Assembly (NCBI GenBank): GCA_964531335.1
Contig: CAZHEV010000012.1
Span: forward strand, 34,866 to 98,865
Source of the DNA: an uncultured bacterium
GTDB taxonomy: Bacteria > Eisenbacteria > RBG-16-71-46 > CAZHEV01
DNA length: 64,000 nt
Reading direction: 5' to 3'
A program made the translations under genes and the position numbers. The notes beneath the pieces are model-generated. The model was not told the origin of the DNA. It was given only the letters and a program-made list of their open reading frames with translations, and did not search any database. Positions 38,783 through 60,327 of the stretch are shown piece after piece (the first letter of the stretch is position 1; the number at the start of each line of letters is the position of its first letter).

Positions 38783-41782
38783 GTGAGACTTGTCAGAGTT
38801 TTTGTCTCATCTCCGGGAGACGTCCAGGAGGAGCGCAGGGTCCTGGAAGAGGTGGTGGACTCAGTTAACGGCGACGTCGGCGAGAGGCACTCCGTCTTCC
38901 TGAAGCTCTTTCGGTGGGAGAAGGACGTCGTTCCGCGGATAGGGCCCGCTCCTCAGGAGGTAGTGGACGCCCAGGCTCCCTATTGCGACATCTTCCTTGG
39001 GATCATGTCCGGCCGGTTCGGGACTAGAACGGGCAAGTGGGGCTCCGGGACGGAGCACGAGTTTCGCCAGGCGGTAGAGAGGTGGGGGAGGAGCGATTCC
39101 CCCTGGATCCTTTTCTACTTCGACGACGAGCCGCCGACACCGAAGACGCGTGATGCGGCCATGCAGTTCGCCAAGGTTTTGGAGTTTCGCGAGGAACTCA
39201 AGAAGCTCGGGATTACGGGCAGCTACAAAGGCGTGCAGGGCGACCGTTCTTCGTTTGCCTGGCAAGCCGGCGAGCACCTGCGCCGGATCGTGCTCAATCA
39301 TCTGCCGCCAATTGAATCGGGGGAAGGCGCCGGGGCGAAAAGACCGGCGCCCGGCCACATGGTAGAGGCCGGACTCAAACCACCTGCCGTTCCAAAGGCG
39401 TACCGCGACTGGCTATGTTCCCAGTGCTCGGAGATCGGCCTCCTGGGTCTCGAGCTCAAGCAGTCCCACGCCGTAAGGCTCAGCCATGTGTACGTCCCGC
39501 TATGCACTCACGCTGTCTCCGAAAAGAAGCGCGGCGAGCGTTCCCGCCGTGAAGACGAGCGCTTCCTGACCGACATGCCCGGGCGTGAGGCCAAGCCGCG
39601 GTTGCTCCTTGATCTTCTCGGGAAGGAGTCCCTCTACGTTCCCGGGGCGCCGGGGGCGGGCAAGTCGACCTTCTGCCGGTGGGTGGCGTGGCTTGTTTGC
39701 AACGCTGACATGCCTTCCTACATAACCGAAGCCGCGGACACCCCGGAGGGCTACGCTGAGAGCTTTCCCAGCGCCTTTGGCGGGAGACTCCCGGTCCTGA
39801 TCAGGCTGCGCGAGTTCTGGGAGTACCTGCCACGCTCGCCGGGTCGATGCGAGATGACAAAGGACGAGCTGGATAGAGCAATCGGAGAGTGGTTCGAGAA
39901 CAAGACGCCCAAGGGCATCGAATGGACCGGCGGCAGCGGGCGGGCGGACCTTGCGACTCATATGGAGCAGGGCTCGGCGATCCTGATATTGGACGGGGCC
40001 GACGAGGTGCCGCTCTCCGGCGAAGAGAAAAGGCCCTGCTCTCCGCGTGCGATGCTCCTGTCGGGCCTCGCCTCGGCCGTACCGTCATGGATGAAGACCG
40101 GCAATCGGGTCCTGCTGACGAGCCGCCCCTACGGGCTGGGCACTCGGGAGTCCGAGACGCTGGGCCTTAGGCAGGCGCCCATAGTAGAGCTGGACCCTGA
40201 CCTCCAGAACCTTCTCATTATACGCTGGTTTGCGATCCTTGAAGGTGACTCCGCTACCGGCGAGGAGGTGGCCCGGGAGATGATCACGCACATACGCGGT
40301 CGCAACGACATAGATCCTCTTGCCTCAAATCCGATGCTCCTCACCGCGATGTGCGTGATATACGGCGAGGGCAAGCGCCTACCCCAGGATAAGCACGATC
40401 TCTACACGCGTATCGTCAACAACGTGCTGTACAACCGGTTCCACCGCGATCCGACGCTTATCGACCCGGTCCGCAACCGTCTCGCCGTCGTTGCGCACGG
40501 AATGCACACAGGTGAAGCTCTCGAAGAGGACAGAACAGCTCCCCAGGTGGAGGCGACGAACGAGGAGATAGACATAATCCTCCGGGACTACCAGGACAAC
40601 GTGCCGTTTACCGAGTCCGCCTTCGTGGACGCCGTCCAGGCGCGCGAGCAGCTTCTGGCCGAGTCCGGGCTGCTGCTGCCCCGCGGGGAGGGCAGGGCGG
40701 GGTTCTACCACCTCTCCTTCCAGGAGTTCCTCGCCGCACAGAGGCTCATGGAGCTGGATGCAGCACGCCTCCGGGAGGTATTCCGAGAGCGAGCGGAAAC
40801 CTCCGAGTGGAGAAACACTCTTTCGTTCCTGTTCAGCTCAAGACTGGCCGGATCGGTGTCCCCGGAGGGGAGCACCAGGTTGCTGGCGGAACTGCTGAGC
40901 GAAGTCTCCGTTGAGAAGCTCGGGCTGCACGTGGTCGTGGCGGACTGTTTTCAAATACTGCTGGGAAAGGGGATCCGGCTTCCGGAGGCTCTCGAGGAGA
41001 AGTTCCGAAAGGACTGCCTGAGCGCGATCAAGGCGGAGGTCTCCATTCCCGAAAGGGTGCATCTCGGGCTGGTGCTGGGGCAGATAGGCCACCCCAGAAT
41101 TGTGACGGATCTCAGGGACAGGGCCGCGTATGTGGAGGTGCCGCCAAAGCGGTATTTTGTGGGCGAGAAACGAAAGCGTTTTGATTTGAAAGAGAGTTTT
41201 CTGCTCTCGCGATATCCGGTGACCAACGGGCAATATGCGGTCTTCGTTGAAGAAGAGGGATACAAGGATCGGAAGTGGTGGTCTGATGAGGGATGGAAGT
41301 GGCGTGAAAGTGAAGACGTCCGCGAACCCGGCTACTGGCACGATCGTACCTGGAATGGTCCCACTCAGCCGGTCGTGGGCGTATCGTTCTACGAGGCGGA
41401 GGCGTTCGCGCGCTGGGCCGGAGGCCGTCTGCCCGCCGAGAGGGAATGGGAAGCGGCGGCACGAGGGCCGGAAGGATACGTCTATCCCTGGGGGGACGAC
41501 TGGGAGGAAGGTATCTGCAACAGCGATGAGTCCGGCGTCGGCGCCACAACGCCGGTCGGCCTCTTCCCTCGGTCTCGGTCGGCGCCGTTCGAGCTGGAGG
41601 ACATGTCGGGCAACGTGTGGGAATGGTGCTCGGATTACTATGACCCGACGGGGTCGCCCGGAGCCCGTGTTCTGCGCGGCGGTTCCTGGATCTATGGATC
41701 GAGGGGCCTGCGCGCCGCCATTCGCCTCAGGGGCGTCCCCGTCCTCCGGGTCGTCAGCATAGGATTTCGGGTTGTCTTGTGA
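38783..41782 (+). CDS. DGR target 1: NLR-like STAND NTPase (DUF4062/TIR-like N-domain, NACHT, HEAT-like linker, C-terminal FGE-type C-type-lectin fold carrying VR1)
   Basis: A 999-aa ORF starting at GTG 38783, with GGAGG upstream. The N-terminus reads VRVFVSSPGDVQEERR...CDIFLGIMSGRFG...ILFYFDD. Walker A GAPGAGKST is at 39644-39670 and Walker B ILILDGADE at 39980-40006. The FGE/SUMF1-like domain spans about 41129-41779 (YPVTNGQY...VVGVSFYEAEAFARWAGGRLPAEREWE...GNVWEWC...RGGSW...IGFRVVL). Confidence 0.93.
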   Translation: MRLVRVFVSSPGDVQEERRVLEEVVDSVNGDVGERHSVFLKLFRWEKDVVPRIGPAPQEVVDAQAPYCDIFLGIMSGRFGTRTGKWGSGTEHEFRQAVERWGRSDSPWILFYFDDEPPTPKTRDAAMQFAKVLEFREELKKLGITGSYKGVQGDRSSFAWQAGEHLRRIVLNHLPPIESGEGAGAKRPAPGHMVEAGLKPPAVPKAYRDWLCSQCSEIGLLGLELKQSHAVRLSHVYVPLCTHAVSEKKRGERSRREDERFLTDMPGREAKPRLLLDLLGKESLYVPGAPGAGKSTFCRWVAWLVCNADMPSYITEAADTPEGYAESFPSAFGGRLPVLIRLREFWEYLPRSPGRCEMTKDELDRAIGEWFENKTPKGIEWTGGSGRADLATHMEQGSAILILDGADEVPLSGEEKRPCSPRAMLLSGLASAVPSWMKTGNRVLLTSRPYGLGTRESETLGLRQAPIVELDPDLQNLLIIRWFAILEGDSATGEEVAREMITHIRGRNDIDPLASNPMLLTAMCVIYGEGKRLPQDKHDLYTRIVNNVLYNRFHRDPTLIDPVRNRLAVVAHGMHTGEALEEDRTAPQVEATNEEIDIILRDYQDNVPFTESAFVDAVQAREQLLAESGLLLPRGEGRAGFYHLSFQEFLAAQRLMELDAARLREVFRERAETSEWRNTLSFLFSSRLAGSVSPEGSTRLLAELLSEVSVEKLGLHVVVADCFQILLGKGIRLPEALEEKFRKDCLSAIKAEVSIPERVHLGLVLGQIGHPRIVTDLRDRAAYVEVPPKRYFVGEKRKRFDLKESFLLSRYPVTNGQYAVFVEEEGYKDRKWWSDEGWKWRESEDVREPGYWHDRTWNGPTQPVVGVSFYEAEAFARWAGGRLPAEREWEAAARGPEGYVYPWGDDWEEGICNSDESGVGATTPVGLFPRSRSAPFELEDMSGNVWEWCSDYYDPTGSPGARVLRGGSWIYGSRGLRAAIRLRGVPVLRVVSIGFRVVL

Positions 41783-41799
41783 ATTGGCGTCAGGACTCC
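41666..41799 (+). repeat. DGR variable repeat 1 (VR1) plus IMH-like 3' end
   Basis: Aligns to TR 43428-43561 at offset 1762. There are 19 differences, all at TR adenines (hand alignment). It includes the target 1 stop codon at 41780-41782. Confidence 0.92.
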
Positions 41800-41860: not shown

Positions 41861-41887
41861 GCAAGTGCTTTGCGGGACTACACAGCT

Positions 41888-42265
41888 ATGCCGGAAGCCT
41901 CCTCGGAAATGTTGTTGATTACGAAAATGTATGACTTCGTGCTGTGGAGCTGCCGGCACATCGCCAAGTTTCCGCGAAGCCACCGTTTCACTCTCGGCGA
42001 CAGGATGGAGGTCCGACTGTACGAGTTGCTCGAGCTTTTTCTGAGGGCGAAGTATTCTCGTGATCGGCTTCCAACTCTGCGGAAGGCCAACATGGAGCTG
42101 GAGCTACTTCGCTTCCAGTTTCGTCTCGCGAAGGACTTGGAGTGCCTTTCGGTGAAAAGCTACGGCTGCTCCTCACGCACTGTGAATGAAATCGGCAAGC
42201 TACTGGGCGGGTGGGTCAAGAAAGCCTCCGCGAAACCGGTGCAAACCCCAAGGCGGCAACCATGA
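41888..42265 (+). CDS. avd: DGR accessory variability determinant (Avd; four-helix-bundle / 23S rRNA IVS-protein family)
   Basis: ORF 41870-42265 (TTG); ATG 41888 or 41909 is the likely start. The sequence LLITKMYDFVLWSCRHIAKFPRSHRFTLGDRMEVRLYELLELFLRA...LELLRFQFRLAKDL matches the helical FP-(K/R)-x-x-(R/K)-(F/Y)-x-L-G-D-(Q/R) pattern of this family. Its position immediately upstream of the RT also fits. Confidence 0.85.
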   Translation: MPEASSEMLLITKMYDFVLWSCRHIAKFPRSHRFTLGDRMEVRLYELLELFLRAKYSRDRLPTLRKANMELELLRFQFRLAKDLECLSVKSYGCSSRTVNEIGKLLGGWVKKASAKPVQTPRRQP

Positions 42266-42297: not shown

Positions 42298-43362
42298 GTG
42301 AGAAGACAAGGCGGCATCTGGGAGGAGCTCATTAGCTTCCCGAATCTTCTGCGGGCGGCCCAGAAGGCCGCCCGCGGCAAGCGGGCTCGGTCGAACGTGG
42401 CTCGGTTCCACCTGGACCTGGAAGGGCAGCTCTGTCGGCTCCAGGACGAGCTTATCGCGAAGACTTACCTTCCGGGTCAGTATCGAACCTTCGCGATACA
42501 TGAGCCGAAGGCCCGCACTATCAGCGCCGCACCGTACCGGGATCGTGTCGTCCATCACGGCCTTTGCCAAGTGCTGGAGCCGGCATTCGAACGTCGGTTC
42601 ATCTTCGACAGCTACGCGTGCCGCAAGGGAAAGGGGACTCATGCGGCGCTGGCCCGCTTCACGCAGTTCGCCAGAAGAAACCGCTACGTCCTCAAGTGCG
42701 ACGTTCGAAGGTACTTCCCGTCTATCGACCATGAGATCTTGAAGGGACAAGTCCGAAGGAGGATCAAGGACCGGGACGCCCTGTGGTTGGTCGATCTGAT
42801 CGTCGATCATTCCAATCCACAGGAACCTGTGTGCGACTGGTTTCCCGGAGACAATCTGCTCACGCCTTCAGAGCGGCGCCGTGGTCTTCCGATTGGCAAC
42901 CAGACAAGCCAGTTCTTTGCCAACGTCTATCTCGATCCGCTGGACCACTACGTCAAGGAGCGGCTGCGAGCGCGCTACTACATTCGCTACGTCGACGACT
43001 TTGTTGTCTTCGGGGATGACAAAGAGTGGCTCTCAGACGTGCGGGATCGGTGCGCGGGGTTCGCTCGCGGCCTTCGTCTGGCTCTACACGAGCGAAAGTG
43101 CGTGATATCCCGCACCTGCGATGGTACGCGATTCCTCGGTTTTCGCGTCTTCCCTACTCACAGGCTGCTCGCGCGGGAGAACGTCGCCCGGACGAGGCGG
43201 CGGCTCCGGTGGCTTGGGGGCGAGTTCGCCGCGGGTCACGTGTCGGCGGCTGATGTGAGCCGCCGCATTATGAGCTGGATAGGGCACGCTCAGCACGGAG
43301 ATACATTCCGCTTGCGCTCCAGGCTCTTCAGGGAGAATACTTTCTCACGGAAGGGCGAGTAG
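42298..43362 (+). CDS. DGR-type reverse transcriptase
   Basis: A 354-aa ORF starting at GTG. RT motifs include [50 protein letters not shown] (the [ILV]GxxxSQ variant that I recall as DGR-specific) and [12 protein letters not shown] (YxDD). Confidence 0.95.
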
Positions 43363-43427: not shown

Positions 43428-43561
43428 CGTGTTCTGCGCGGCGGTTCCTGGAACAATGAATCGAGGAACATGCGCGCCGCCATTCGCAACAGGAACAACC
43501 CCGACAACCGGAACGACAACATAGGATTTCGGGTTGTCTTGTGAATTGGCGTCAGTACTCC
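43428..43561 (+). repeat. DGR template repeat (TR) with IMH*-like 3' end
   Basis: This non-coding copy lies 66 nt downstream of the RT stop and is rich in AAC triplets. In the target frame it would read [38 protein letters not shown]. It is the adenine-bearing parent of VR1 and VR2. Confidence 0.92.
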
Positions 43562-43826: not shown

Positions 43827-45056
43827 ATGCTGAGCAAGGAAGATGAGGGTCTTCTGAAGAAGGCACTGAACGTCTTTGACCCGGCGCGTCCACTTGAGGG
43901 CGAGCTGTTGGACAGCTTCTACATTTCTAGGCCCCATGCGCCCTTGAAGGCAATGAAGGCCTATCTCCGTGCCAACCAGAGCCCCGTCAAGGTGCTTTTC
44001 TGCGGTCACAGGGGTTGCGGGAAGTCAACGGAGCTTGCGCGTCTGGCAAAGGATCTGGAAAATGAGTTCTTAATTGTCCCGGTCTCGGCCCGATCGCTCG
44101 ACCTGGCCGATCTCACCTATGTCGATGTCATCCTTGCCTCCGCGGCGGGATTGTTCCTCCAGGCAAGCTCGGTGAAAGGCGCGGCTAGGATCAAGTCAAG
44201 CGTGCTGAAAGACGTGCTGGAGTGGCTTGGGAGCGAGATCGTCCGGGAAACGACGGTGTCCGTCTTGAAGTCGGGAAATATGGGCGCGAAGCTGAGTGTT
44301 TTGATACTCAGCCTCCAAGGCAAGTACTCGAGTGAGACGACCACGCGCAAGACGGTGAGAGACCGCCTGTATCGGCAGGTAAGCGACCTCATTCAGCGCA
44401 TGGATGCCGTATGCGAAGAGCTGGAGAAGAAAGGCGTTCCGCCGCTGATACTCTTTGAAGATATAGACAAGGCGGATCTGGAGAGGGCACGAGGTCTGTT
44501 CGTAGAACATAGGAACACCATGATCAGCCCGGCATGCAGGATAATCTATACTTTTCCGATTTCATTGAGACATTCACACGAGTTTCCGGCCATTCGACGT
44601 GACTACAGCAAGGTGTTCTCTCTCCCAAACATCAGTATCAACGAGAGAAATGGTTCGATCGACGCGCGGGGGCGTGAGGCCATAGGGTCCGTGATTACAC
44701 GAAGAATCCCGGGGGAAGTCTTCGAGAAGAAGGCCTTCGATTCCATTGTGGAATTGAGCGGAGGACTTATGACGGACCTGGTTCGCCTTGTCTCGGATGC
44801 CGCCCTTATCGCCTTGACCGAAGGATCCTCGCACATTACAAATGAGATAGTGGAACGTGTCGAGGCTGAGATGGCTAACGACTACCGTAGGATTCTTGTG
44901 TCCGAGCACTATGATGCGTTGAGGCGCTCACTCAGTGAAAAAGAGTTCGTTGCCGACGATGTGACCCGCGAATTGCTGGCGAACCAAAGCCTTCTTGAAT
45001 ATCGCAATAACAAAGTGTGGTGCGACGTACACCCCATTGTTCGAGGGTTGTTGTGA
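43827..45056 (+). CDS. P-loop AAA+ ATPase (ORC/Cdc6-like or STAND-related), function unknown
   Basis: ORF 43809-45056 (ATG at 43809 or 43827). Walker A is FCGHRGCGKSTEL and Walker B is PPLILFEDIDKAD, followed by an alpha-helical C-terminal half. The stop TGA (45054-45056) overlaps the ATG of target 2 (45056). Confidence 0.85.
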   Translation: MLSKEDEGLLKKALNVFDPARPLEGELLDSFYISRPHAPLKAMKAYLRANQSPVKVLFCGHRGCGKSTELARLAKDLENEFLIVPVSARSLDLADLTYVDVILASAAGLFLQASSVKGAARIKSSVLKDVLEWLGSEIVRETTVSVLKSGNMGAKLSVLILSLQGKYSSETTTRKTVRDRLYRQVSDLIQRMDAVCEELEKKGVPPLILFEDIDKADLERARGLFVEHRNTMISPACRIIYTFPISLRHSHEFPAIRRDYSKVFSLPNISINERNGSIDARGREAIGSVITRRIPGEVFEKKAFDSIVELSGGLMTDLVRLVSDAALIALTEGSSHITNEIVERVEAEMANDYRRILVSEHYDALRRSLSEKEFVADDVTRELLANQSLLEYRNNKVWCDVHPIVRGLL

Positions 45057-48000
45057 TGGGAACTAGGATCGATATGGATGCGCCGCTACAGCGGCTGGTA
45101 ACCTTGCTGAAGAACCTCGAGGAGGGAGCGATAATCTTTGCCGTCTATGATATGGCGGACGTTCCAGGTCGAGCTATCGGAGCTCTCAGAGCCCTGCTGG
45201 AGGGCCGCGTTCTGGAGCTCCGCATCGACAGGGAGCACAGAAACCCCGTCGATCTGGTTCGTTCTGCTGATGCGCGAAAGGGCGACGTGCTTTGCGTCCT
45301 GAACCTGGAGGAGGGCTTTCCGGACGCATTGGGCTATCTGGATCTTCAGCGGGAGGAGCTATTGGAATTCGGTGTGCCGGTCGTGATCTGGGTGACGCCG
45401 CACGAGCACCGCGAAGTAATAAGAAGAGCCCCGAACCTATACAGGTTCAGGAAAACGCTTGTGGACTTCAGGAGGGCCGGCTCCGAGGGACCACTTGAAT
45501 CCCGATCCGTACCCAAGGTCTTCATCTCGTCGACTGTAGAGGATCTGCGGCCGTATCGCGAGGCGGCGCGGGACGCGGCCATCAACGCGGGCTTCTTCCC
45601 TGTGATGATGGAGTATTTCACGGCCGTCGGCAGACCCCCGCTCGATGAGTGCATGGGCAAAGTGTCCGAGGCCCACCTGGTCGTAGTTATCCTCGCGCAT
45701 CGCTACGGGTGGGTCCCGGATGACCAGCCGGCCGGTGGAGACAAGAGTATCACCTGGCTTGAATGTGAGAGGGCGGAGCAGGAAGGCAAGGAGGTCCTGG
45801 CGTTTATCGTCGATGACGCCCGGAGTTGGCCCGAGGAGCGCCGAGAGGAGCACGATCTGGCTGTCGCCGCGAGAGAGAGCAAAGCGACCCCTGAGTTGCT
45901 GGAGAGGGTCCAGACAAGAGTTGCACGCCTGAGGCAGTTCAAGCGCTGGCTGGACGGCCGCGGGGTGCGCGTGACATTCACGACGCCCGAGGACCTGCAC
46001 GGGAAGATCTCGAATGCCCTGCACGCCTGGAGAAGCCGACATCCGGGCTTGGCCCAGAGTGCGGCCAAAACGCCCGCCCTGCCCGCCGACCCTGCGCGGT
46101 ATCTGAAGTACGTTCGGGAACAGACGGCGTACATAGACATCCGAGGGCTTCAGGTGGGCAGCGGCAAGGTCTTCCGATTTCCCATAGAGGACCTCTATAT
46201 CACTCTCACGACCACGGCCTCCGCGGAGACGGCTAAAGAGGAGAAGCGCAAGGGCAGGAAGGCGCGCGATGAGGCGGACCCCATGATGTCTCGCAGGGAC
46301 TCGTCCGTTCCTCTTCACAAGGCCCTGGCGAAGCGCCGGCTCGTGGTGGTCGGCGATCCCGGCTCCGGCAAGACGACGTTTCTGAGACGCGTCGCGTCCA
46401 CGCTTTCCCAGACGGCGCTCGGCGAGGTTCCCGACGCGGCGAAGAGTCGGCTGGGTCTGGCGGGAAAGCCGCTTCCGGTATTCGTCCGGCTGGTAGAGCT
46501 CGCCGAGCACATCGAGGAGAGTCGCCGCGTCCACGGCGGTCGGCGTCCATTGGCTCGCGACGCCGCTCGATGGCTGCCGCACTTTCTGGCATCCACAACC
46601 GAGGACGGGGGGCATGGGCTTGACGAGGAGTACTTCCGGGAACGCTTGGAGAAAGGCGATTGCGCGATCCTTCTCGACGGGTTGGACGAGGTCCCCACCC
46701 GTCCTTCTCGCGAGGGGATGTCCCGGCTCATAGAAAGGCTGGCCGGCGCCTATAAGGGCTGCATCCTCGTGGTCACCAGCCGCCCCGCCGCGTACACGGG
46801 GGAGACGGTGCTCCCCGGCTTTACACACGCGCGGATCGAATCGCTCGAAGAAGAAGCAATCGCAACCTTCCTCGGGAAGTGGTCGGGCGCTCTCTGTCCT
46901 GAGAGCCCCGGCGAGGCCGAACGCCACCGCGACGAGCTTGCGGGGGCTCTGACAAGCCGCCCGGAGATAAAGCGCATGGCGCGGAACCCGGTGATGCTCA
47001 CGGCGCTTGCCGTGGTCCATTGGAACGAGAGGCGGCTCCCGGAGCAGAGGGCGGATCTCTACCAGTCGATCATAAGATGGCTGTCCAGATCCCGCGAGCA
47101 GCGCTCTGAGAGGCTCCCCTCGGACAGATGTGTCGCCGTGTTGCAGGAGCTCGCCCTGGCCATGCAGAGTCACCCCGAAGGCCGCCAGGTCCAGGTGACG
47201 AGGCGATGGGCGGCGGAGGCGATCGCCGTCGAGCTCACCGGCGAGGGAGCGCAGCGCGCCGTGGCGGAGGCGCCCTCGGTGCGCGAGACCGCAAGATATG
47301 GCGCAGATGACATGAAGCCCGCGGGCGAGCCGTCGAGGCACGCCATAGAGCTGGCAGAACGCTTCCTCGAGGAGGAGGAGCAAGACAGCGGGATAGTGGT
47401 AGGCCGCGGAAACGAGATCCGCTTCTGGCATCTCACCTTTCAGGAATACCTGGCGGCGCGGGCTATTGCCGCCCGCTCCGAGGCGGAGCAGAAGGCGCTA
47501 CTTTTCGGCGATAGTGACAGAATCCACCGCCCCGACTGGCGCGAGGTCGTCCTGCTGCTGACTGGGGTGTTGCACCAGCAGGGCAGACAAAAGGTGGATG
47601 GGTTCGTATCCCAGGCGCTCGACATGATCGGAGAGAGGCCGAGCCTCTCCCGTCAGGCGCGGTGCGCCGGTCTTCTGGGCGCCCTTCTCCGCGATCTGGC
47701 CCCCCTGGACTATAGGATTTCCGACGCAAGATATCCGAAGCTCCTCGATACGGTCATGGGCGTATTCGACGCGAAGCGCTCGAGGTCGGTTTCCATTGAG
47801 GAGCGCGTCGAGGCGGCGGAGGCGCTGGGCCAGGCGGGCGACCCCCGACTGAACATGAACGATCCCGATCGCTGGATACACATACCCAAGAAGCCCTTCC
47901 TCATGGGAGCTCAGAAAAAGGATCCAACGAAGCCCGGTTACGATCCGGGGGCTGACGATGACGAGGCGCCGGTGAGGACAGTAAACCTCGATGCCTACCG

Positions 48001-48598
48001 GATCGGGCGCTACCCGGTGACGGTGGAGGAGTACGAGCGGTTCGTCGAGCACGGGGGCTACGAGGAGAAGCGTTGGTGGAAGGAGGGGGGCTTCGGGCAG
48101 TTCGCCGAGCCGGGGGACTGGGAAGAACAGCTCGCACACCCCAATCGCCCTGTTGTGGGTGTGAGTTGGTATGAGGCGGCTGCGTACGCGGCGTGGGCGG
48201 GGTGCGGGCTTCCCACGGAGGCTCAGTGGGAGAGGGCGGCCAGGGGCACGGACGGCCGAAAGTACCCCTGGGGGGACGATCCGCCCGATCCCGCCAGATG
48301 CAATTACGAAGAGACCAGGCTTGGACGCGCGACGCCCGTGGGTGTCTTCCCGCTGGGCGCGACACCGGAGGGCGTTTGCGACATGGCCGGAAACGTCTGG
48401 GAGTGGTGTCAAGATTGGTACAGTGAGGCATACGAGCCCGGCCGGCTTGACAACCCTCGGGGGCCTGACAGAGGGACACTTCGTGTTCTGCGCGGCGGTT
48501 CCTGGGGCTATGTATCGTGGAACTTGCGCGCCGCCATTCGCGGCGGGGGCAACCCCGGCGACCGGCTCGACGACCTGGGGTTTCGGGTTGTCTTGTGA
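45056..48598 (+). CDS. DGR target 2: NLR-like STAND NTPase (unknown N-module, DUF4062, NACHT, HEAT-like linker, C-terminal FGE-type C-type-lectin fold carrying VR2)
   Basis: ORF 45017-48598. ATG 45056 overlaps the upstream stop (ATGA). The DUF4062-like region KVFISSTVEDLRPYREAARDAAINAGFFPVMMEYF...ILAHRYGWVP...ITWLECERA...VLAFIVDD spans about 45515-45830. Walker A GDPGSGKTT is at 46352-46378 and Walker B ILLDGLDE at 46667-46690. The FGE-like domain spans about 47873-48595 and ends ...RGGSWGYVSWNLRAAIRGGGNPGDRLDDLGFRVVL. Confidence 0.93.
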   Translation: MGTRIDMDAPLQRLVTLLKNLEEGAIIFAVYDMADVPGRAIGALRALLEGRVLELRIDREHRNPVDLVRSADARKGDVLCVLNLEEGFPDALGYLDLQREELLEFGVPVVIWVTPHEHREVIRRAPNLYRFRKTLVDFRRAGSEGPLESRSVPKVFISSTVEDLRPYREAARDAAINAGFFPVMMEYFTAVGRPPLDECMGKVSEAHLVVVILAHRYGWVPDDQPAGGDKSITWLECERAEQEGKEVLAFIVDDARSWPEERREEHDLAVAARESKATPELLERVQTRVARLRQFKRWLDGRGVRVTFTTPEDLHGKISNALHAWRSRHPGLAQSAAKTPALPADPARYLKYVREQTAYIDIRGLQVGSGKVFRFPIEDLYITLTTTASAETAKEEKRKGRKARDEADPMMSRRDSSVPLHKALAKRRLVVVGDPGSGKTTFLRRVASTLSQTALGEVPDAAKSRLGLAGKPLPVFVRLVELAEHIEESRRVHGGRRPLARDAARWLPHFLASTTEDGGHGLDEEYFRERLEKGDCAILLDGLDEVPTRPSREGMSRLIERLAGAYKGCILVVTSRPAAYTGETVLPGFTHARIESLEEEAIATFLGKWSGALCPESPGEAERHRDELAGALTSRPEIKRMARNPVMLTALAVVHWNERRLPEQRADLYQSIIRWLSRSREQRSERLPSDRCVAVLQELALAMQSHPEGRQVQVTRRWAAEAIAVELTGEGAQRAVAEAPSVRETARYGADDMKPAGEPSRHAIELAERFLEEEEQDSGIVVGRGNEIRFWHLTFQEYLAARAIAARSEAEQKALLFGDSDRIHRPDWREVVLLLTGVLHQQGRQKVDGFVSQALDMIGERPSLSRQARCAGLLGALLRDLAPLDYRISDARYPKLLDTVMGVFDAKRSRSVSIEERVEAAEALGQAGDPRLNMNDPDRWIHIPKKPFLMGAQKKDPTKPGYDPGADDDEAPVRTVNLDAYRIGRYPVTVEEYERFVEHGGYEEKRWWKEGGFGQFAEPGDWEEQLAHPNRPVVGVSWYEAAAYAAWAGCGLPTEAQWERAARGTDGRKYPWGDDPPDPARCNYEETRLGRATPVGVFPLGATPEGVCDMAGNVWEWCQDWYSEAYEPGRLDNPRGPDRGTLRVLRGGSWGYVSWNLRAAIRGGGNPGDRLDDLGFRVVL

Positions 48599-48615
48599 AT
48601 TGGCGTCAGGACTCC
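48482..48615 (+). repeat. DGR variable repeat 2 (VR2) plus IMH-like 3' end
   Basis: Aligns to TR 43428-43561 at offset 5054. There are 19 differences, all at TR adenines (hand alignment). It includes the target 2 stop codon at 48596-48598. Confidence 0.92.
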
Positions 48616-48967: not shown

Positions 48968-49939
48968 ATGCGAGTTTTTGTAACCGGCGTGTCAGGCTTC
49001 GCCGGAAGCCACCTGGCGGAGCTCCTTCTTGCCGGCGGGCATGAGGTTCACGGCTTTACGGACGATCCGTCCCTCGACGACAATCTTGCGCCGCTTGCGG
49101 GCCGCGTGAAGATCTCGAAGGGCGACATCCGCGATCGCCGGGCTGTCCGCTCGGCTCTCTCCGAGGCGAGACCGGAAAGAATATACCATCTGGCCGCGGT
49201 CACCCCGGGCAGGGGCCACCCGAAGGACGAGCTTTTCTGGGAGGTCAACGTGGGCGGCACGGCGATCCTGCTCGATGAGGCCTCGCGGCTGGAGCGGGTC
49301 AAGGTCTTGGTGGCCGGATCGAGCGCCGAGTACGGCCTGATCCCCAGGAAGGACAATCCCCTCACGGAGGCGGCGGAGCTTCGCCCCATGGGGGTGTACG
49401 CGGTCAGCAAGGCGGCTCAGACGCTCCTGGCCTTCTCATACTGGGCCCATCAGGGAGTATGGGTTGTAAGGACCCGGGCGTTCAACCACACGGGGCCGCG
49501 CGAGGACACAGGCTTTGTCTCGTCCACCTTCGCGCGGCAGGTGGCCGCGGCGGAGGCCGGCGCCGCCGAGCCCGTGATTCGGGTTGGCAATCTTAGCGCC
49601 TACAGGGACATAGCCGACGTTAGGGACATAGTGAGGGGCTACGTCGCCGCCCTGGAAGGGGGTAGGGCCGGAGCCCTGTACAATATTTGCTCGGGCATCC
49701 CCACGCAGGTCCGGGAGGTTCTGGACAGGCTGGTTGCCATGTCCGAGAGGCCGCTCAGGGTTGAGGTGGACCGGGATAGGCTGAGGCCCTCGGATCTGCC
49801 CTTCCAGCAGGGCGACTCGTCCCTTCTCGAGAAGGAGACCGGCTGGAAGCCCGAGATCCCCCTGGAGAGGACCATCGGGGACCTACTCGAGTACTGGAGG
49901 CTAAGGTTAAGAAAAGAAACGGGATCAACACGCCGATAA
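48968..49939 (+). CDS. NAD-dependent nucleotide-sugar epimerase/dehydratase/reductase (SDR; GDP-4-keto-6-deoxymannose reductase-like)
   Basis: A 323-aa ORF with MRVFVTGVSGFAGSHLAELL and GVYAVSK (YxxxK). Confidence 0.85.
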   Translation: MRVFVTGVSGFAGSHLAELLLAGGHEVHGFTDDPSLDDNLAPLAGRVKISKGDIRDRRAVRSALSEARPERIYHLAAVTPGRGHPKDELFWEVNVGGTAILLDEASRLERVKVLVAGSSAEYGLIPRKDNPLTEAAELRPMGVYAVSKAAQTLLAFSYWAHQGVWVVRTRAFNHTGPREDTGFVSSTFARQVAAAEAGAAEPVIRVGNLSAYRDIADVRDIVRGYVAALEGGRAGALYNICSGIPTQVREVLDRLVAMSERPLRVEVDRDRLRPSDLPFQQGDSSLLEKETGWKPEIPLERTIGDLLEYWRLRLRKETGSTRR

Positions 49940-49968
49940 CGTAGGAAACCTCGGGAATAGGAGGGGCG

Positions 49969-50958
49969 ATGGACTGGTCTGGGATCAAGGTGCTGGTTAC
50001 GGGAGCCGGCGGCTTCATCGGAAGCCATCTTACCGAGCGTCTGGTCGCCGAGGGCGCTTCGGTGAGGGCCTTTGTCCGGTACAACTCAAAGGGCTACAGG
50101 GGATTCATCGATGATTTCCCCCCGCAGGTCATGGAGGCCCTGGAGGTGGTCGCGGGCGATCTGGGAGACTCGGATGCGGTGTACCGCGCCATGGAGGGCG
50201 TCGAGTACGTCTTCCATCTCGGGGCCCTTATAGCCATCCCTTACTCCTATGTCCATCCAAGGGACGTCGTCAAGACGAACGTGATGGGAACGCTGAACGT
50301 GCTGTCGGGCTGCCGCGACCACGGCGTCAAGAGGCTCGTGCACACGTCGACGAGCGAAGTGTACGGGACGGCGCAGTACGTCCCGATCGACGAGAAGCAC
50401 CCCCTCGTGGGACAGTCGCCTTACTCGGCCAGCAAGATAGCGGCTGATCAGATAGCGGAGAGCTTTTACCGGTCCTTCGACGTGCCCGTCGCGACGCTGC
50501 GACCGTTCAACACCTACGGGCCGCGCCAGTCGGCGAGGGCGGTAATCCCGTCGGTCATCAGCCAGGCGATAGGAAGGGACGTGGTCCAGGTGGGCGCGAT
50601 GCACCCCGTGAGGGATCTCACTTTCGTCTCCGATACGGTGCAGGGGTTTCTGCTGACCGCGGAGCGGGACGAGGCGGTCGGGGTGGTGACGAACCTCGGC
50701 TGGGGTACCGGCATCTCGGTCAAGGATCTCGTGGAGAAGATAGTGTCCATCGTCGGCAGGAAGGTGGAGGTCATGTTCGACGCCACCAGGCTCAGGCCCG
50801 CGAAGAGCGAGGTGGACAGGCTAATCGCCGACAGCACCCAGGCGAAGGCCAGGTTGGGCTGGGAGCCCAAGGTGGAGCTCGACGAAGGTCTCAGGCAGAC
50901 GGTGAAGTGGATCAGCGAGCACTTCGACATTTACAGTCCCTCGACGTACGCTGTCTAG
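49969..50958 (+). CDS. NAD-dependent nucleotide-sugar 4,6-dehydratase/epimerase (extended SDR)
   Basis: A 329-aa ORF with GAGGFIGSH, TSTSEVYG, YSASK and RPFNTYGPRQ. GGAGG lies upstream. Confidence 0.88.
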   Translation: MDWSGIKVLVTGAGGFIGSHLTERLVAEGASVRAFVRYNSKGYRGFIDDFPPQVMEALEVVAGDLGDSDAVYRAMEGVEYVFHLGALIAIPYSYVHPRDVVKTNVMGTLNVLSGCRDHGVKRLVHTSTSEVYGTAQYVPIDEKHPLVGQSPYSASKIAADQIAESFYRSFDVPVATLRPFNTYGPRQSARAVIPSVISQAIGRDVVQVGAMHPVRDLTFVSDTVQGFLLTAERDEAVGVVTNLGWGTGISVKDLVEKIVSIVGRKVEVMFDATRLRPAKSEVDRLIADSTQAKARLGWEPKVELDEGLRQTVKWISEHFDIYSPSTYAV

Positions 50959-50974
50959 GGGCCGGCTGCGGGAT

Positions 50975-51676
50975 GTGCCAATGGATGCTGTAGTCATGGC
51001 GGGCGGTAAAGGGACCAGGCTGCGGCCCCTTACATACGCGATACCCAAGCCGCTGCTTCCGGTGGGGGAGCGGCCCATACTGGAAATACTGCTCGGCCAG
51101 CTCAAGAAGAGCGGGTTCACGCGCGTGTACGTAAGCATCGGGTACAAGGGCGATCTCATAAGATCATATCTGGGCGACGGCTCGCGCCTGGGCGTTTCCG
51201 TGGAGTACGTGGACGAGCCGGAGGCTCTGGGGACGGCGGGCGCCCTGGCGCTCATAAAGGACCGTCTCAAGAGCCCGTTTCTGATGGCAAACGGGGATAT
51301 CTTGACGAAGCTCGACTTCGACAGGTTCTACGCCGAGCATGTTTCGGAGGGCGCGGCGATGACGGTGGGCTGCATCGAGTACAAGGTGCAGATCCCGTTC
51401 GGAGTCGTGAAAAGCGACAACGGTCTCGTGCGTGGAATAGCGGAGAAACCGACAACGACGCACCTGGTGGCCTCGGGCATATACGTGCTGAGCCCGGAGG
51501 CGCTGGAAGCCTTGGGCGCCCCCGAGCGCCTGGACGTCCCGGACCTCATGCTGGGCCTGGTCAGGCGCGGCAAGAAGGTGCGCACCCACGTTATCACGGA
51601 GCCCTGGCTGGACGTCGGAAAGATGAGCGACTACGAAAGGGCGACGCAAGAAGCGGCCTCATGGGGAGGCGTTTGA
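50975..51676 (+). CDS. sugar-phosphate nucleotidyltransferase
   Basis: A 233-aa ORF with the MAGGKGTRLRPLTYAIPKPLLPV signature. Confidence 0.9.
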   Translation: MPMDAVVMAGGKGTRLRPLTYAIPKPLLPVGERPILEILLGQLKKSGFTRVYVSIGYKGDLIRSYLGDGSRLGVSVEYVDEPEALGTAGALALIKDRLKSPFLMANGDILTKLDFDRFYAEHVSEGAAMTVGCIEYKVQIPFGVVKSDNGLVRGIAEKPTTTHLVASGIYVLSPEALEALGAPERLDVPDLMLGLVRRGKKVRTHVITEPWLDVGKMSDYERATQEAASWGGV

Positions 51677-51678
51677 GA

Positions 51679-52995
51679 ATGAGGATATCCGTGTTCGGAC
51701 TCGGATACGTCGGCTGCGTCAGCTCGGCATGCCTGGCCGATCAGGGGCACGAGGTCATAGGCGTAGACATAAGCGAGTTCAAGGTGGACGCGATAAAGGC
51801 CGGCAGGAGCCCGATCATAGAGAAGGGGCTCGACGAATTGATTTCGCGGGCCGTCGAGCGGGGAAGCCTGACCGCCACCGCAGACGTCAGGGGGGCCGTC
51901 GCCGGCACGGAGCTCTCGCTCATATGCGTGGGGACCCCGAGTGGGGGGAGCGGCGAGATAGACATGAGCTACGTCTATCGAGTGGCCGGGAGCATAGGCG
52001 CGGCATTGAAGGATAAGGCGGACTTTCACGCCGTGGTCTTCAGGAGCACGATGCTGCCCGGTTCCATGGAGGGAGAGGTGATCCCGCGACTTCTGGAGGC
52101 TTCGTCCCGCGGGCTGGGGGGCGGCATCGGCGTGGGCTACAACCCCGAGTTCCTGAGGGAGGGAAGCGCGGTCAAGGACTTCTTCAATCCGCCTCTGACC
52201 GTGATCGCGGTCACCGACCAGGCGACGAAGGAATGCGTCCGGCGCGCGTACGGCTTCGTTGGCGCGCCCTTCATAGTCACCGACATGAAGTCGGCCGAGA
52301 TGATCAAGTACGTAAACAACGCTTTTCACGCACTGAAGGTGGCCTTCGCGAACGAGATCGGAACGATTTGCAAGCACGAGGGCATCGACGGCCGCGAGGT
52401 GATGCGGCTGTTCTGCATGGACGACAAGCTGAACCTTTCGGCGACGTATCTTCAACCCGGCTTCGCTTTCGGGGGAAGCTGTCTGCCGAAGGATCTCAAG
52501 GCGCTTTCCGGGCGAATCAAGAGCGCGCAGATATCCGCCCCCGTGCTGAGATCGGTCCTGCGCAGCAACGAAGATCACATAGAGCGGGCCACCAAGCTGA
52601 TAGAAGGAGCGGGGGGCAAGAAGGTGGGCATCCTCGGTTTGAGCTTCAAGGCGGAAACCGACGACGTGCGCGGAAGCCCCGTGGTCAAGATAATAGAGAC
52701 CCTGGTCGGCAAGGGCTACGAGGTCTCCGTTTACGATTCCAACGTCGATCTCAGCCGGATAATGGGCACCAACCGGCGGTTCCTCGAAGAGGAGGTGCCG
52801 TACCTGCCCTCGATACTGAGATCGTCCCCCGGCGAGATCACGTCCTCGTGTGACGTGATAGTGGTGGCTAACAAGAGCCTGGAATTCAAGGACATCGCGG
52901 CCGCGACGCGGCCCGAGCAGACGCTCGTTGATATAGTCGGCATCTTAGAGGACGGGTCGGGACTGAAAGGCAGGTACATTGGCATCTGCTGGTAA
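51679..52995 (+). CDS. nucleotide-sugar 6-dehydrogenase (GDP-mannose/UDP-glucose dehydrogenase family, AlgD-like N-terminus)
   Basis: ORF 51661-52995. MRISVFGLGYVGCVSSACLADQGHEVIGVD begins at 51679. The catalytic Cys motif GGSCLPKD is present. Confidence 0.92.
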   Translation: MRISVFGLGYVGCVSSACLADQGHEVIGVDISEFKVDAIKAGRSPIIEKGLDELISRAVERGSLTATADVRGAVAGTELSLICVGTPSGGSGEIDMSYVYRVAGSIGAALKDKADFHAVVFRSTMLPGSMEGEVIPRLLEASSRGLGGGIGVGYNPEFLREGSAVKDFFNPPLTVIAVTDQATKECVRRAYGFVGAPFIVTDMKSAEMIKYVNNAFHALKVAFANEIGTICKHEGIDGREVMRLFCMDDKLNLSATYLQPGFAFGGSCLPKDLKALSGRIKSAQISAPVLRSVLRSNEDHIERATKLIEGAGGKKVGILGLSFKAETDDVRGSPVVKIIETLVGKGYEVSVYDSNVDLSRIMGTNRRFLEEEVPYLPSILRSSPGEITSSCDVIVVANKSLEFKDIAAATRPEQTLVDIVGILEDGSGLKGRYIGICW

Positions 52996-52996
52996 G

Positions 52997-54172
52997 GTGC
53001 TCATACTGGTCGAGAATCTGACGGTTCCTTTCGACAGGCGCGTGTGGCTGGAGGCGCAGGCGCTGAGGGACGCGGGCTGGGAGGTGTCCGTGATATGTCC
53101 CAAGGGAGAGACCTACACGAAGTCCTTCGAGGTACTGGAAGGGGTCCGCATATACAGGTATCCGACCCCTCCGCCCACCAAGGGACTGGGCAGCTACATC
53201 TGGGAATTCGTCTACTGCTGGTTCATGACTGGCTGGCTCTCCCTAAGGGTGCATTTCGGAACCGGCTTCGACGTAATACACGCTTGCAATCCCCCGGACA
53301 CCTTCTTCGCGCTGGGAAGGTTCTACAAGATCTTCGGCAAGAAATTCATCTACGACCAGCACGACCTCTGTCCGGAGCTGTTTCTGGCGAGATTCAAGGC
53401 CCGGAAGAGAATCACGTACAAGATGCTGCTCGCTCTGGAGAAATGGACCTACGACACCGCGAATCTCGTCCTTTCCACGAACGAGTCGTACAAGAGAACG
53501 GCCACCGGCAGAGGCAAGGTGCCGCCGGAGGACGTTGTCGTCGTCAGGAGCGCTCCCGACATCAAGAGGTTCTCGCCCAAGGAGCCCGAAGAAGCCCTGA
53601 AGAAAGGCAAGAGATATCTTGTGTGCTATCTGGGAGTGATGGCGCCGCAGGACGGAGTGGACTACCTCATCCGTTCGGTGGATCACATAGTGAACACCAG
53701 GAAGAGGAGGGACGTCCATTTCGTACTCATAGGGTCGGGAGACAGCTACGACAATCTCCGGGAGCTGACGACCAGCCTGGGGCTGGACGACGTCGTCGAG
53801 TTCACGGGCAGGATCCCGGACAAGGACGTCGAGCGCTACCTGTCCACGGCCGAGGTCTGCGTCAGCCCGGACCCGAAAAACGATCTCAACGACGCCTCTA
53901 CCATGAACAAGATCTTGGAGTACATGGCCCTGGGCCGGTCTATCGTCGCCTTCGATTTGAAGGAGACCAGGTACTCGGCGGGGGAGGGCGCGCTTTACGC
54001 TAAGGCGAACGACTACAGGGACTTCGGCGACAAGATCGTCGAGCTGTTGGATGACGAGGATAAACGAGCAGCCATGGGTGAGCGCAACACCCGCAGGCTC
54101 AGCGAGTCGCTGTCCTGGGACAAGTCCAAGGAGCGACTGCTCGAAGCTTACGAGATAATCAAAAGGAAGTAG
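52997..54172 (+). CDS. glycosyltransferase family 4 (GT-B)
   Basis: ORF 52979-54172 (TTG). GTG 52997 gives (M)LILVENLTVPFDRRVW, typical of GT4 N-termini. The nucleotide-sugar-binding region is at the C-terminus (KILEYMALGRSIVAFD). Confidence 0.85.
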   Translation: MLILVENLTVPFDRRVWLEAQALRDAGWEVSVICPKGETYTKSFEVLEGVRIYRYPTPPPTKGLGSYIWEFVYCWFMTGWLSLRVHFGTGFDVIHACNPPDTFFALGRFYKIFGKKFIYDQHDLCPELFLARFKARKRITYKMLLALEKWTYDTANLVLSTNESYKRTATGRGKVPPEDVVVVRSAPDIKRFSPKEPEEALKKGKRYLVCYLGVMAPQDGVDYLIRSVDHIVNTRKRRDVHFVLIGSGDSYDNLRELTTSLGLDDVVEFTGRIPDKDVERYLSTAEVCVSPDPKNDLNDASTMNKILEYMALGRSIVAFDLKETRYSAGEGALYAKANDYRDFGDKIVELLDDEDKRAAMGERNTRRLSESLSWDKSKERLLEAYEIIKRK

Positions 54173-54180
54173 GAGTTGCT

Positions 54181-57501: not shown

Positions 57502-57604
57502 GGAGAAGAGCGGCCCTCCCACGCCCTTCGCCATGCTCCACGTCCACACGGCTTGATTCTCAGGAGCGCTTGACCCTATCATTGGGTGGTGGTTGGGTTC
57601 GGGT

Positions 57605-59971: not shown

Positions 59972-60026
59972 GCGGTCCTCACTGGGTTTTAGCGCGAGCG
60001 GGAAGGCCCGGCCCGGCAAAATTCTG

Positions 60027-60055
60027 TTGACAAAAGCGGTTCCCGCCGATAGCAT
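60027..60055 (+). promoter_or_regulatory. promoter candidate for the tRNA-Gly/tRNA-Cys pair (TTGACA-17 nt-TAGCAT)
   Basis: TTGACA at 60027-60032, a 17-nt spacer and TAGCAT at 60050-60055 lie about 60 nt upstream of tRNA-Gly. Confidence 0.4.
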
Positions 60056-60115: not shown

Positions 60116-60192
60116 GCGGAAGTAGCTCAGTCCGGTAGAGCTCCACCTTGCCAAGGTGGCCGTCGCGGGTTCAAATCCCGTCTTCCGCTCCA
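60116..60192 (+). tRNA. tRNA-Gly (anticodon GCC), CCA encoded
   Basis: Hand-folded cloverleaf. The acceptor is GCGGAAG/CTTCCGC and the D-arm is GCTC-AGTCCGGTA-GAGC. The anticodon arm is CCACC-TTGCCAA-GGTGG and the T-arm is GCGGG-TTCAAAT-CCCGT. The discriminator is T, followed by CCA. Confidence 0.93.
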
Positions 60193-60252
60193 AATACTGC
60201 CTAGAGGCTTTGGGCAGTGCCGCGCGGTCGGAGCCGATTCGTCGAAACGGAA

Positions 60253-60327
60253 GGCGGCATAGCCAAGGGGTAAGGCGACGGTCTGCAAAACCGTTATTCT
60301 CCGGTTCAAATCCGGATGCCGCCTCCA
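60253..60327 (+). tRNA. tRNA-Cys (anticodon GCA), CCA encoded
   Basis: Hand-folded. The acceptor is GGCGGCA/TGCCGCC, the anticodon arm is ACGGT-CTGCAAA-ACCGT and the T-arm is TCCGG-TTCAAAT-CCGGA. The discriminator is T, followed by CCA. Confidence 0.9.

Follow-up and report, generated by a model that had tools for sequence, protein, structure and literature searches.

How, and for what purpose, would a bacterium hypermutate the tail of a protein that is built like an NLR? This question is raised by a cassette of about 10 kb (~38.5-48.7 kb) within a 64,000-nt stretch of DNA from an uncultured bacterium (assembly GCA_964531335.1, contig CAZHEV010000012.1, positions 34,866 to 98,865 of the forward strand), which was analyzed as a whole and is referred to below as the window. 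The cassette carries a diversity-generating retroelement (DGR), with its reverse transcriptase (RT), template repeat (TR) and two variable repeats (VRs), and the VRs form the ends of two large genes that we name target 1 and target 2. A preliminary description, made from the DNA letters, had proposed that target 1 is an NLR-like STAND NTPase whose sensor, a C-type lectin domain (CLec) of the formylglycine-generating enzyme (FGE) type, is diversified by the DGR. Our analysis leads us to the view that this is probably a chromosomal DGR diversifying two NLR-like receptors with an NAD+ hydrolase (NADase)-type head, which would act in an abortive-infection-type defense. NLR-like receptors diversified by DGRs have been put forward as the bacterial analogue of immune receptors that diversify somatically, and the locus, compact and intact with all parts present, is a testable example.

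A Retroelement Predicted to Serve Two Targets

The element and the genes it would act on are laid out as follows.

38783-41782, + strand: target 1, a DUF4062 (NIR)-NACHT-helical-FGE/CLec protein of 999 aa (open reading frame [ORF], Pfam, AlphaFold2, Foldseek)
41666-41793, + strand: VR1, the variable repeat of target 1, with variable codons at residues 970-992 (TR alignment)
41870-42265, + strand: avd, the DGR accessory variability determinant, 131 aa (NCBIfam, Pfam)
42298-43362, + strand: DGR RT, 354 aa (Pfam RVT_1, E 1.2e-20; PADLOC RT, E 1.3e-48)
42907-42924, + strand: RT motif SQFFAN, residues 204-209 (motif search)
42988-42999, + strand: RT motif YVDD, residues 231-234 (motif search)
43428-43555, + strand: TR, the template repeat, non-coding (three-copy repeat family, alignment)
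45056-48598, + strand: target 2, an N-domain-DUF4062-NACHT-FGE/CLec protein of 1180 aa (Pfam)
48482-48609, + strand: VR2, the variable repeat of target 2 (TR alignment)

The TR and the two VRs make up a three-copy repeat family, with one copy at the 3' end of target 1, a non-coding one 3' of the RT gene and one at the 3' end of target 2. Compared with the TR, VR1 has 19 base differences, every one at a TR adenine and none elsewhere, and together they change 13 codons and 13 amino acids within residues 970-992, in agreement with the 13 changed codons that had been reported for the last 30 residues. VR2 likewise shows 19 base differences, 19/19 at TR adenines, with 14 codons changed. The adenine statistics refer to the 114-nt coding-equivalent part of the TR, in which there are 29 adenines, and the hypergeometric probability that 19 of 19 differences fall on them is ~1e-14. 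VR1 consists of the last 117 coding bases of target 1 plus 11 nt beyond the stop codon. The TR, which begins 66 nt 3' of the RT stop codon, holds ten AAY (AAC/AAT) codons and 17 mutable codons altogether, which amounts to a repertoire of ~10^15.2 protein variants in which stop codons are unreachable.

The three copies have a 32-nt 3' stretch in common, identical in the TR and VR1 and with one mismatch in VR2. Past this stretch, GGACTCCGTA...GCCCCTTTACA is common to VR1 and VR2, and the TR has GTACTCCACA. A shared 3' end with a VR-specific flank would correspond to the IMH versus IMH* arrangement expected for a DGR, and we assign it this putative role. The small gene upstream of the RT scores 111.4 bits against the NCBIfam model NF033474 (DivGenRetAVD), for which the equivalog cutoff is 80, and matches Pfam bAvd with E 1.5e-23. 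As judged from its sequence, the locus is a complete DGR that would serve both target 1 and target 2.

An NLR-Like Protein with a Predicted Reprogrammable Lectin Face

Target 1 starts with a GTG codon seven bases 3' of a GGAGG and is devoid of signal peptide or membrane segment. The ORF and motif coordinates given in the preliminary description proved exact when rechecked, with VFVSS at residues 6-10, CDIFLGI at 68-74 and ILFYFDD at 109-115. We collected 489 homologues at E<=1e-10, and modeled the protein with AlphaFold2 using 71 sequences as input (pLDDT 90.0, pTM 0.77). Profile hidden Markov model searches of target 1 returned FGE-sulfatase and DUF4062 above threshold and NACHT 3 bits under it, and the model recovers both NACHT (NLRP3) and FGE/EgtB folds, in support of the tripartite NLR layout first proposed. 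Our data thus support the view that target 1 and target 2 are cytoplasmic NLR-like proteins, each with a lectin sensor, a NACHT switch and a DUF4062 head. The sensor occupies the C terminus.

41129-41779, + strand: FGE-type C-type lectin domain, residues 783-999, without catalytic cysteines (Pfam, PDB sequence matches)

Pfam FGE-sulfatase covers residues 801-998 of target 1 with E 1.8e-47. Sequence matches of the domain in the PDB are EgtB, FGE, CalU17 and TvpA, the last of which (2y3c) is found with E 8e-4 from the single sequence and E 3.7e-15 from the family profile. When the model is compared by Foldseek, EgtB, FGE, ToxD and CalU17 are retrieved at E 1e-15 to 1e-11. The FGE/SUMF1-type CLec fold that had been assigned from the sequence is therefore upheld by Pfam, by the TvpA profile match and by structure.

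VR1 encodes the last 38 residues of target 1, of which the terminal seven (IGFRVVL) are invariant. Within this segment, which is modeled with a pLDDT of 92-97, variable and conserved positions alternate. Across 70 homologues, the mean entropy is 3.39 bits for the 13 variable positions, compared with 1.32 for the positions interleaved with them and 1.43 for the rest of the lectin domain, which suggests that these VR positions are the ones diversified throughout the family. The VR is also found at the C-terminal end in TaqVP, Mtd and TvpA, and in the solved homologues the variable residues are all solvent-exposed, lie on one contiguous surface and form the binding site. By analogy with these proteins, the evidence supports the prediction that the lectin domain of target 1 is a reprogrammable ligand-binding face.

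The NACHT Switch and the Helical Linker

Between the two ends of target 1 lie the following features.

39590-40222, + strand: NACHT-type P-loop NTPase core, residues ~270-480 (motifs, conservation, NLRP3 matches)
39644-39670, + strand: Walker A GAPGAGKST, residues 288-296 (motif search)
39980-40006, + strand: Walker B ILILDGADE (DGxDE), residues 400-408 (motif search)
40115-40129, + strand: sensor-1 LTSRP, residues 445-449 (motif search)
40223-41128, + strand: helical region, residues 481-782, with winged-helix/helical STAND domains and then putative HEAT-like repeats before the lectin domain (model, alignments)

The NACHT assignment of target 1 is well supported by several lines of evidence. 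The GxxGxGKS, hhhhDGxDE and TSRP motifs are present, and nine of the residues concerned (G291, K294, S295, D404, G405, D407, E408, S447 and R448) are invariant across the 71 homologues. Pfam NACHT (PF05729) reaches 40.5 bits on the paralogous target 2, over the gathering score of 26.7, and is listed for most homologues of target 1 at 45-55% identity. Moreover, Foldseek matches the target 1 model to NLRP3 structures 9gu4 (E 3.6e-13), 8swk (3.1e-12), 7alv (5.4e-12) and 8ej4 (1.1e-10). The earlier identification of a NACHT-type P-loop, made from its motifs, is thereby corroborated.

Residues 481-782 are all-helical in the AlphaFold2 model, and the NLRP3 alignments extend over about 580-650 columns. 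The HEAT-like linker mentioned in the preliminary description finds modest backing in a match of the family profile (positions 741-781) to designed HEAT-like alphaRep proteins, with E 2.8e-6.

The N-Terminal Head and Its Likely Output

The head of target 1 is the part from which an output can be predicted.

38783-39307, + strand: DUF4062 (NIR) domain, putatively TIR-like, residues 1-175 (Pfam PF13271, PADLOC PDC-S60, model, conservation)
39047-39064, + strand: GTEHEF, with candidate catalytic residue E93 (conservation)

Pfam PF13271 matches residues 5-97 with 31.2 bits when the full protein is used and 35.2 bits for the domain alone, the gathering score being 24.7, and DUF4062 is matched in 21/22 members of the target 1 subfamily. 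Residues 2-145 also match the N terminus of the PADLOC defense-candidate model PDC-S60 (E 6.6e-32), which is the sole PADLOC match of target 1 and is confined to this domain; a literature search on PDC-S60 found nothing. The domain is modeled as a five-stranded β-α sandwich with a pLDDT of 89.6. Among 71 homologues, conservation reaches 90% or more at T90, E91, E93 and A97, and T90-E91-H92-E93-F94 sits at the N-terminal end of helix 89-104. In both targets the Pfam DUF4062 match ends at the identical profile position, which makes E236 of target 2 the counterpart of target 1 residue E93.

Three 2026 preprints (10.64898/2026.09.04.749371, 10.64898/2026.05.01.722283, 10.64898/2026.06.25.731849), report that DUF4062, which one of them renames NIR, has a TIR-like NADase activity on which anti-phage defense depends. 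They report that the domain drives this defense in Swarozyc, Evangelion, Vulcan, Vesta and PsAvs2, an Avs2 STAND protein that carries it as its effector at the N terminus, and that human TEP1 has the activity too. The catalytic Glu, part of an E-[YF] motif, is given there as E87 in Eva01, E97 in KpSwz, E98 in Vulcan and E108 in PsAvs2; E93 of target 1, as judged from its position, falls inside this 87-108 range and is a candidate for the same role. DUF4062 genes are also reported to be enriched near defense systems (20% versus 3.9% expected). To call the head a candidate effector, as had been done, was, given these reports, an understatement. The accompanying claim of a DUF4062-type, TIR/deoxyribosyltransferase-like domain is borne out for DUF4062, which Pfam recovers. 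As to the fold, Foldseek of the N-terminal model found no deoxyribosyltransferase and no specific TIR match, and the term TIR-like is therefore taken from the Pfam family and from what the preprints report. A sequence search of the PDB with the N-terminal 180 aa of target 1 gave chance-level matches only.

Close homologues that align over only ~80% of target 1, with the N-terminal region unmatched, list other domains, namely TIR_2 (7), SIR2_2 (11), metallophosphoesterase (3), trypsin (1) and CHAT (1). These were read from precomputed Pfam lists and may occur instead of, or alongside, DUF4062. This is the strongest comparative indication that the N-terminal position in the family is an effector slot, and it suggests that one hypermutable sensor-and-switch chassis is apparently reused with TIR, SIR2, protease and phosphoesterase outputs.

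It is possible, if doubtful, that DUF4062 is not a NADase here and that it is either a TIR-like module without catalysis, used for assembly or as an adaptor, or an enzyme for a different nucleotide. The fold search would be compatible with this, and so would the failure of the two targets' DUF4062 domains to align by BLASTP and the earlier annotation of PsAvs2 with a putative CMP hydrolase. In the available text of the preprints, a legend refers to assays of TEP1, NWD1, NWD2 and NPHP3 and activity is stated for TEP1 alone, and the Evangelion preprint leaves a common catalytic mechanism among DUF4062 proteins unsettled. Such a role sits poorly, however, with a T-E-x-E-[FY] motif at least 90% conserved across the family, with a Glu at position 93, inside the range that the preprints report as catalytic, and with homologues that list the NADase-type domains TIR_2 and SIR2_2 in place of the head. 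A NADase head, which we favor, has the merit that its reported family turns the output into a measurable prediction, namely a loss of NAD+ that would hinge on E93 as well as on the lysine of Walker A.

Target 2 and Its Partner ATPase

Target 2 presents the same DUF4062-NACHT-FGE order as target 1, to which it is 31% identical, behind an extra N-domain of ~140 residues (45056-45475), and it is preceded by a gene of its own.

43827-45056, + strand: partner P-loop ATPase (ORF4), 409 aa with the start that databases record, or from 43809 as the longest ORF (weak AAA_16 match)
46352-46378, + strand: Walker A of target 2
46664-46690, + strand: Walker B of target 2

Besides its NACHT score of 40.5 bits, target 2 matches Pfam DUF4062 with E 5.2e-20 and FGE with E 4.2e-57, and the 1180-aa product is recorded in the protein collection. 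The partner ATPase is translationally coupled to target 2, its stop codon overlapping the ATG of the latter as TGATG, and the homologues of this ATPase form a conserved family of ~410 aa. In all five other loci considered, an ATPase homologue is directly followed by a gene for a TPR protein, which has a STAND NTPase domain in 4/5. Residues 1-140 of target 2 are 31-44% identical to the N termini (~135 residues) of those five TPR proteins (E 1e-19 to 6e-37). To EruA, target 2 shows a P-loop-level match only (20 bits versus a cutoff of 1000).

From these alignments, target 2 looks like a fusion that would place a hypermutable receptor under the partner ATPase, a layer that target 1 is without. 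The ATPase and the docking domain, in turn, look like a module, undescribed, that is common to different STAND receptors. An ATPase-coupled target 2 suggests an extra regulatory layer, so far undescribed for DGR-STAND systems.

Proposed Mechanism and Role

From the architecture, the DGR parts, the adenine-only pattern and the family hypervariability, which are observed, we infer DGR activity, a ligand, oligomerization, a NADase output and defense, arranged as follows. Avd and the RT would copy TR RNA into adenine-mutagenized cDNA, which would replace the last 117 coding bases and 11 nt past the stop in target 1 and target 2. A ligand would bind the variable lectin face and thereby release the NACHT module to oligomerize. 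Oligomerization would gather the DUF4062 domains and switch on NAD+ hydrolysis, and the ensuing growth arrest or death of the cell would provide an abortive-infection-type defense against a phage or other invader. The steps that would follow retrohoming (binding, oligomerization, NAD+ loss and arrest) are borrowed from Avs, bNACHT and NIR systems.

A more ambitious version of this scheme, a working anticipatory immunity, is one that we advance only tentatively. There, an ongoing, population-wide repertoire (up to ~10^15 variants per target) would be coupled to an NAD+ depletion output, and cells with a variant that matches an invader would arrest or die to the benefit of their kin, in a host not known to be multicellular. 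It would operate in two tiers, with target 1 acting alone and target 2 gated by the ATPase via the N-terminal docking domain that it shares with TPR-type STAND receptors elsewhere.

Several observations weigh against the mechanism proposed above as a whole. The cassette lies inside a polysaccharide-biosynthesis (sugar-nucleotide/glycosyltransferase) cluster, with no recognizable defense island. None of the PADLOC or NCBIfam models of validated defense proteins (Avs1-5, bNACHT) matches target 1, on which Pfam NACHT (PF05729) scores 23.4 bits with a gathering score of 26.7. When compared with the PDB by Foldseek, the N-terminal model retrieves generic flavodoxin-like folds only (TM ~0.4), with no TIR in the top 50. 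As for the retroelement, no hairpin or cruciform was found 3' of VR1 and VR2, where folding is no better than for shuffled sequence; an adenine-biased TR is present within the fetched flanks in 13/80 related loci; and the target 1 and target 2 proteins are identical in a second assembly on record (Logan; SRR7048218 for target 1). Finally, a literature search found no experiment on any DGR-diversified STAND-CLec protein.

The setting of the cassette and the lack of a known phage trigger also fit another role, which we hold to be unlikely, in which the architecture would serve self/non-self or kin discrimination, or regulatory signaling, and the lectin face would sense a molecule of the cell or of a neighbor. 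Parallels exist in fungal NLR-based incompatibility and in the regulatory tuning proposed for cyanobacterial DGRs. Doré et al. (PMC10907252) raise resource sharing among consortium neighbors, cite kin-recognition work and mention an earlier signal-transduction proposal for cyanobacterial DGRs. Several observations argue for defense instead. Homologues with an unmatched N-terminal region list the cell-suicide or defense effectors TIR, SIR2, CHAT and trypsin, the head itself matches the defense-candidate model PDC-S60, and DUF4062 genes show the reported enrichment near defense systems. In addition, target 1 has no signal peptide or membrane segment, and what it samples would therefore be the cytoplasm.

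Distribution of the Family

Relatives of target 1 were found at 80 genome loci, mostly in Planctomycetota; the best match is 53% identical, so that the source organism itself is absent from the species representatives. Further hosts include Acidobacteriota, Thiorhodococcus drewsii, Lamprocystis, Thiodictyon, Defluviicoccus, Competibacter and Methylococcales. RTs that are 60-70% identical adjoin target 1 homologues in other genomes, and overall an RT is present in 15/80 loci. Among the 37 related loci with good flanks, nine have an adenine-biased TR. In six others of the 80, there are two VR-like copies with the TR out of range. The combination of TR-poor loci with family-wide hypervariability of the VR may mean that targets are remote, that the TR lies at a distance or that repertoires are frozen.

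No member of the target 1 family was found on 2.9 million viral contigs, and the family is therefore cellular. On the same ground, a phage-borne DGR of the tail-fiber type was rejected.

Is the Retroelement Still Active?

Avd, the RT and both targets are encoded by uninterrupted ORFs in which the catalytic motifs are preserved, and there is no drift at positions other than adenines, from which present-day DGR activity can be inferred. We consider it quite improbable that the DGR is now inactive, with VRs that are frozen records and proteins that are receptors of fixed specificity. What speaks for a frozen element is the identity of both targets' proteins in the second assembly, the failure to detect a structured element 3' of the VRs or the TR, and the fact that most related loci are without a TR within 8 kb. 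The first of these is weak evidence because both assemblies may stem from the same sample. Against long neutral drift stand the zero non-adenine mismatches in 2 x 117 nt, together with the identical flanking 3' sequence.

Concerning the structured elements, the regions downstream of VR1, VR2 and the TR have folding z-scores of +2.1, -0.3 and -0.6 versus shuffled sequence, and no structured RNA was found 3' of the TR, which folds no better than shuffled sequence there. A promoter and terminator scan of the cassette returned results at chance level. Between samples, no VR variation was seen at the protein level in the one other assembly that carries the genes. The Logan SRR7048218 contig (7620 nt), from an independent short-read assembly of the locus, ends within 5 nt of the target 1 stop codon, inside the VR/TR repeat, as would be expected of an assembly that fails at the repeat of a DGR.

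The Lectin Domain as a Probable Binding Scaffold

The catalytic pair of human FGE consists of C336 and C341 (Dierks et al. 2005, as cited by PMC6328139). Using a human FGE C-terminal sequence confirmed against PDB 2aii_X, we found that its SYMCHRSYC segment aligns to residues 970-972 of target 1, the first cluster of variable positions. The first catalytic Cys has no partner there, being opposite the gap that follows residue 970, and the second faces G972. The variable segment had been placed at the site of the FGE catalytic cysteines, and the pair does align there. It had further been said to be free of cysteine, as had the TR, and indeed no cysteine is found in residues 962-999 (the last 38) of target 1 or in the TR-encoded peptide.

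That the C-terminal domain is an FGE/EgtB-type enzyme, as might be read from its strong sequence similarity to EgtB, OvsA and FGE and from the name 'SUMF1/EgtB/PvdO family nonheme iron enzyme' that homologues carry in source databases, was rejected and is in our view almost certainly wrong, because the NCBIfam EgtB equivalog reaches 119 bits with a cutoff of 360, the remaining enzyme equivalogs are likewise far below cutoff, the similarity to EgtB is limited to its FGE-fold half (chain residues ~188-434), both FGE cysteines are missing from what is now the hypermutated segment, and 13 hypervariable residues would be intolerable for an active site. The equivalog scores and the absent Cys pair agree with the initial proposal of a binding scaffold that is not an enzyme.

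Residue 976 of target 1, a few residues past the position aligned with the second FGE catalytic cysteine, is a Leu (TR codon ATG); the corresponding residue is Cys in 33/69 homologues and Ala in 23/69.

Comparison with Known Systems

The class to which the locus belongs, combining DGR, STAND and FGE-CLec, has already been published. Kaur, Burroughs, Iyer and Aravind (Kaur 2020, eLife, PMC7159879) predicted DGR-diversified FGE domains on STAND proteins, and Doré 2024 (PNAS, PMC10907252) described loci of DGR clade 5D in which both of two targets combine STAND with CLec and which were proposed to be antigen sensors. These are real counterparts of the surveys mentioned in the preliminary description, which had also held that no ligand, trigger or output had been demonstrated; in this it is consistent with Doré et al., who describe CLec-STAND proteins as experimentally uncharacterized. 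What the locus adds to the class is an identifiable effector family with reported NADase activity, homologue domain lists that point to varied N-terminal effectors on one chassis, and an ATPase-coupled target 2.

As in DGR 3 and DGR 6 (clade 5D) of Thiohalocapsa PB-PSB1, one RT and one TR are present for two targets, and as in clade 5D targets generally, a central STAND NTPase (NACHT or nSTAND1) is combined with a single C-terminal FGE-type CLec that holds the VR. This likeness is one of locus architecture. Homologues of target 1 occur in purple sulfur bacteria, namely Thiorhodococcus drewsii (named in PMC10907252), Lamprocystis and Thiodictyon. There are three differences. First, the head here is DUF4062 (NIR), whereas the main text of PMC10907252 is without DUF4062 and many of the N-terminal extensions lack a characterized domain. 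Second, target 2 adds a domain at its N terminus, which goes together with an ATPase of its own encoded upstream. Third, the host looks like an uncultured type IX secretion lineage, and thus unlike the cyanobacteria and purple sulfur bacteria.

NIR proteins (PsAvs2, TEP1/NWD1) similarly have an N-terminal DUF4062 with a conserved Glu before a STAND NTPase. For the NIR defense proteins, sensor-triggered NAD+ depletion and population-level protection are described. Their sensors are fixed and consist of WD40, of repeats of the TPR or HEAT type, or of an auxiliary domain to which phage portal or terminase binds, and the three preprints mention neither FGE/CLec sensors nor retroelements. Avs and bNACHT proteins are likewise built from an effector at the N terminus, a STAND switch and a sensor at the C terminus; their validated members recognize conserved phage proteins with germline-fixed sensors (PMC13581612). 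This 2026 survey of STAND proteins (Nature, PMC13581612) counts FGE-sulfatase-like domains among STAND sensors and does not mention hypermutation. Finally, TvpA (2Y3C), TaqVP (5VF4) and Mtd resemble the lectin domain in having the VR as the last ~40 residues, AAY codons and an invariant last seven residues. These are stand-alone surface or phage receptor-binding proteins, whereas the domain described here is the sensor of a 999-aa cytoplasmic NTPase.

Genomic Neighborhood

Upstream of the cassette are genes for an epimerase, a carbamoyltransferase and a glycosyltransferase; those downstream encode dehydratases, nucleotidyltransferases, UDP-glucose dehydrogenase, glycosyltransferases and a radical SAM protein. 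The two flanks of the cluster that the cassette splits (15000-37400 and 48968-58750) contain epimerases, dehydratases, a DegT aminotransferase fusion, an asparagine synthase, a carbamoyltransferase, a radical SAM/SPASM protein and several GT4 enzymes, one of which has a sub-threshold Pfam match to 'GT4-conflict'.

An ORF of 984 aa (17491-20445) lies in a stretch of low GC content (0.50 versus ~0.62 elsewhere in the window). Pfam gives no match to it at E<=1e-5, and at its C terminus is a sorting domain of type A for type IX secretion (TIGR04183, 31.6 bits versus a cutoff of 23). The product may be a secreted protein whose gene was acquired horizontally, and its sorting domain hints at a host from the Fibrobacterota-Chlorobiota-Bacteroidota group of phyla, as opposed to Planctomycetota or cyanobacteria. 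The aspartate kinase at 58775-60055 (- strand) has metagenomic relatives that are 60-74% identical, below which identity falls off sharply, and its relatives from named phyla, Candidatus Eisenbacteria among the first, are <50% identical. Rfam finds three tRNAs only over the window, tRNA-Gly(GCC), tRNA-Cys(GCA) and tRNA-Leu(TAA), which lie 3' of the cluster at 60116-60327 and 63408-63495.

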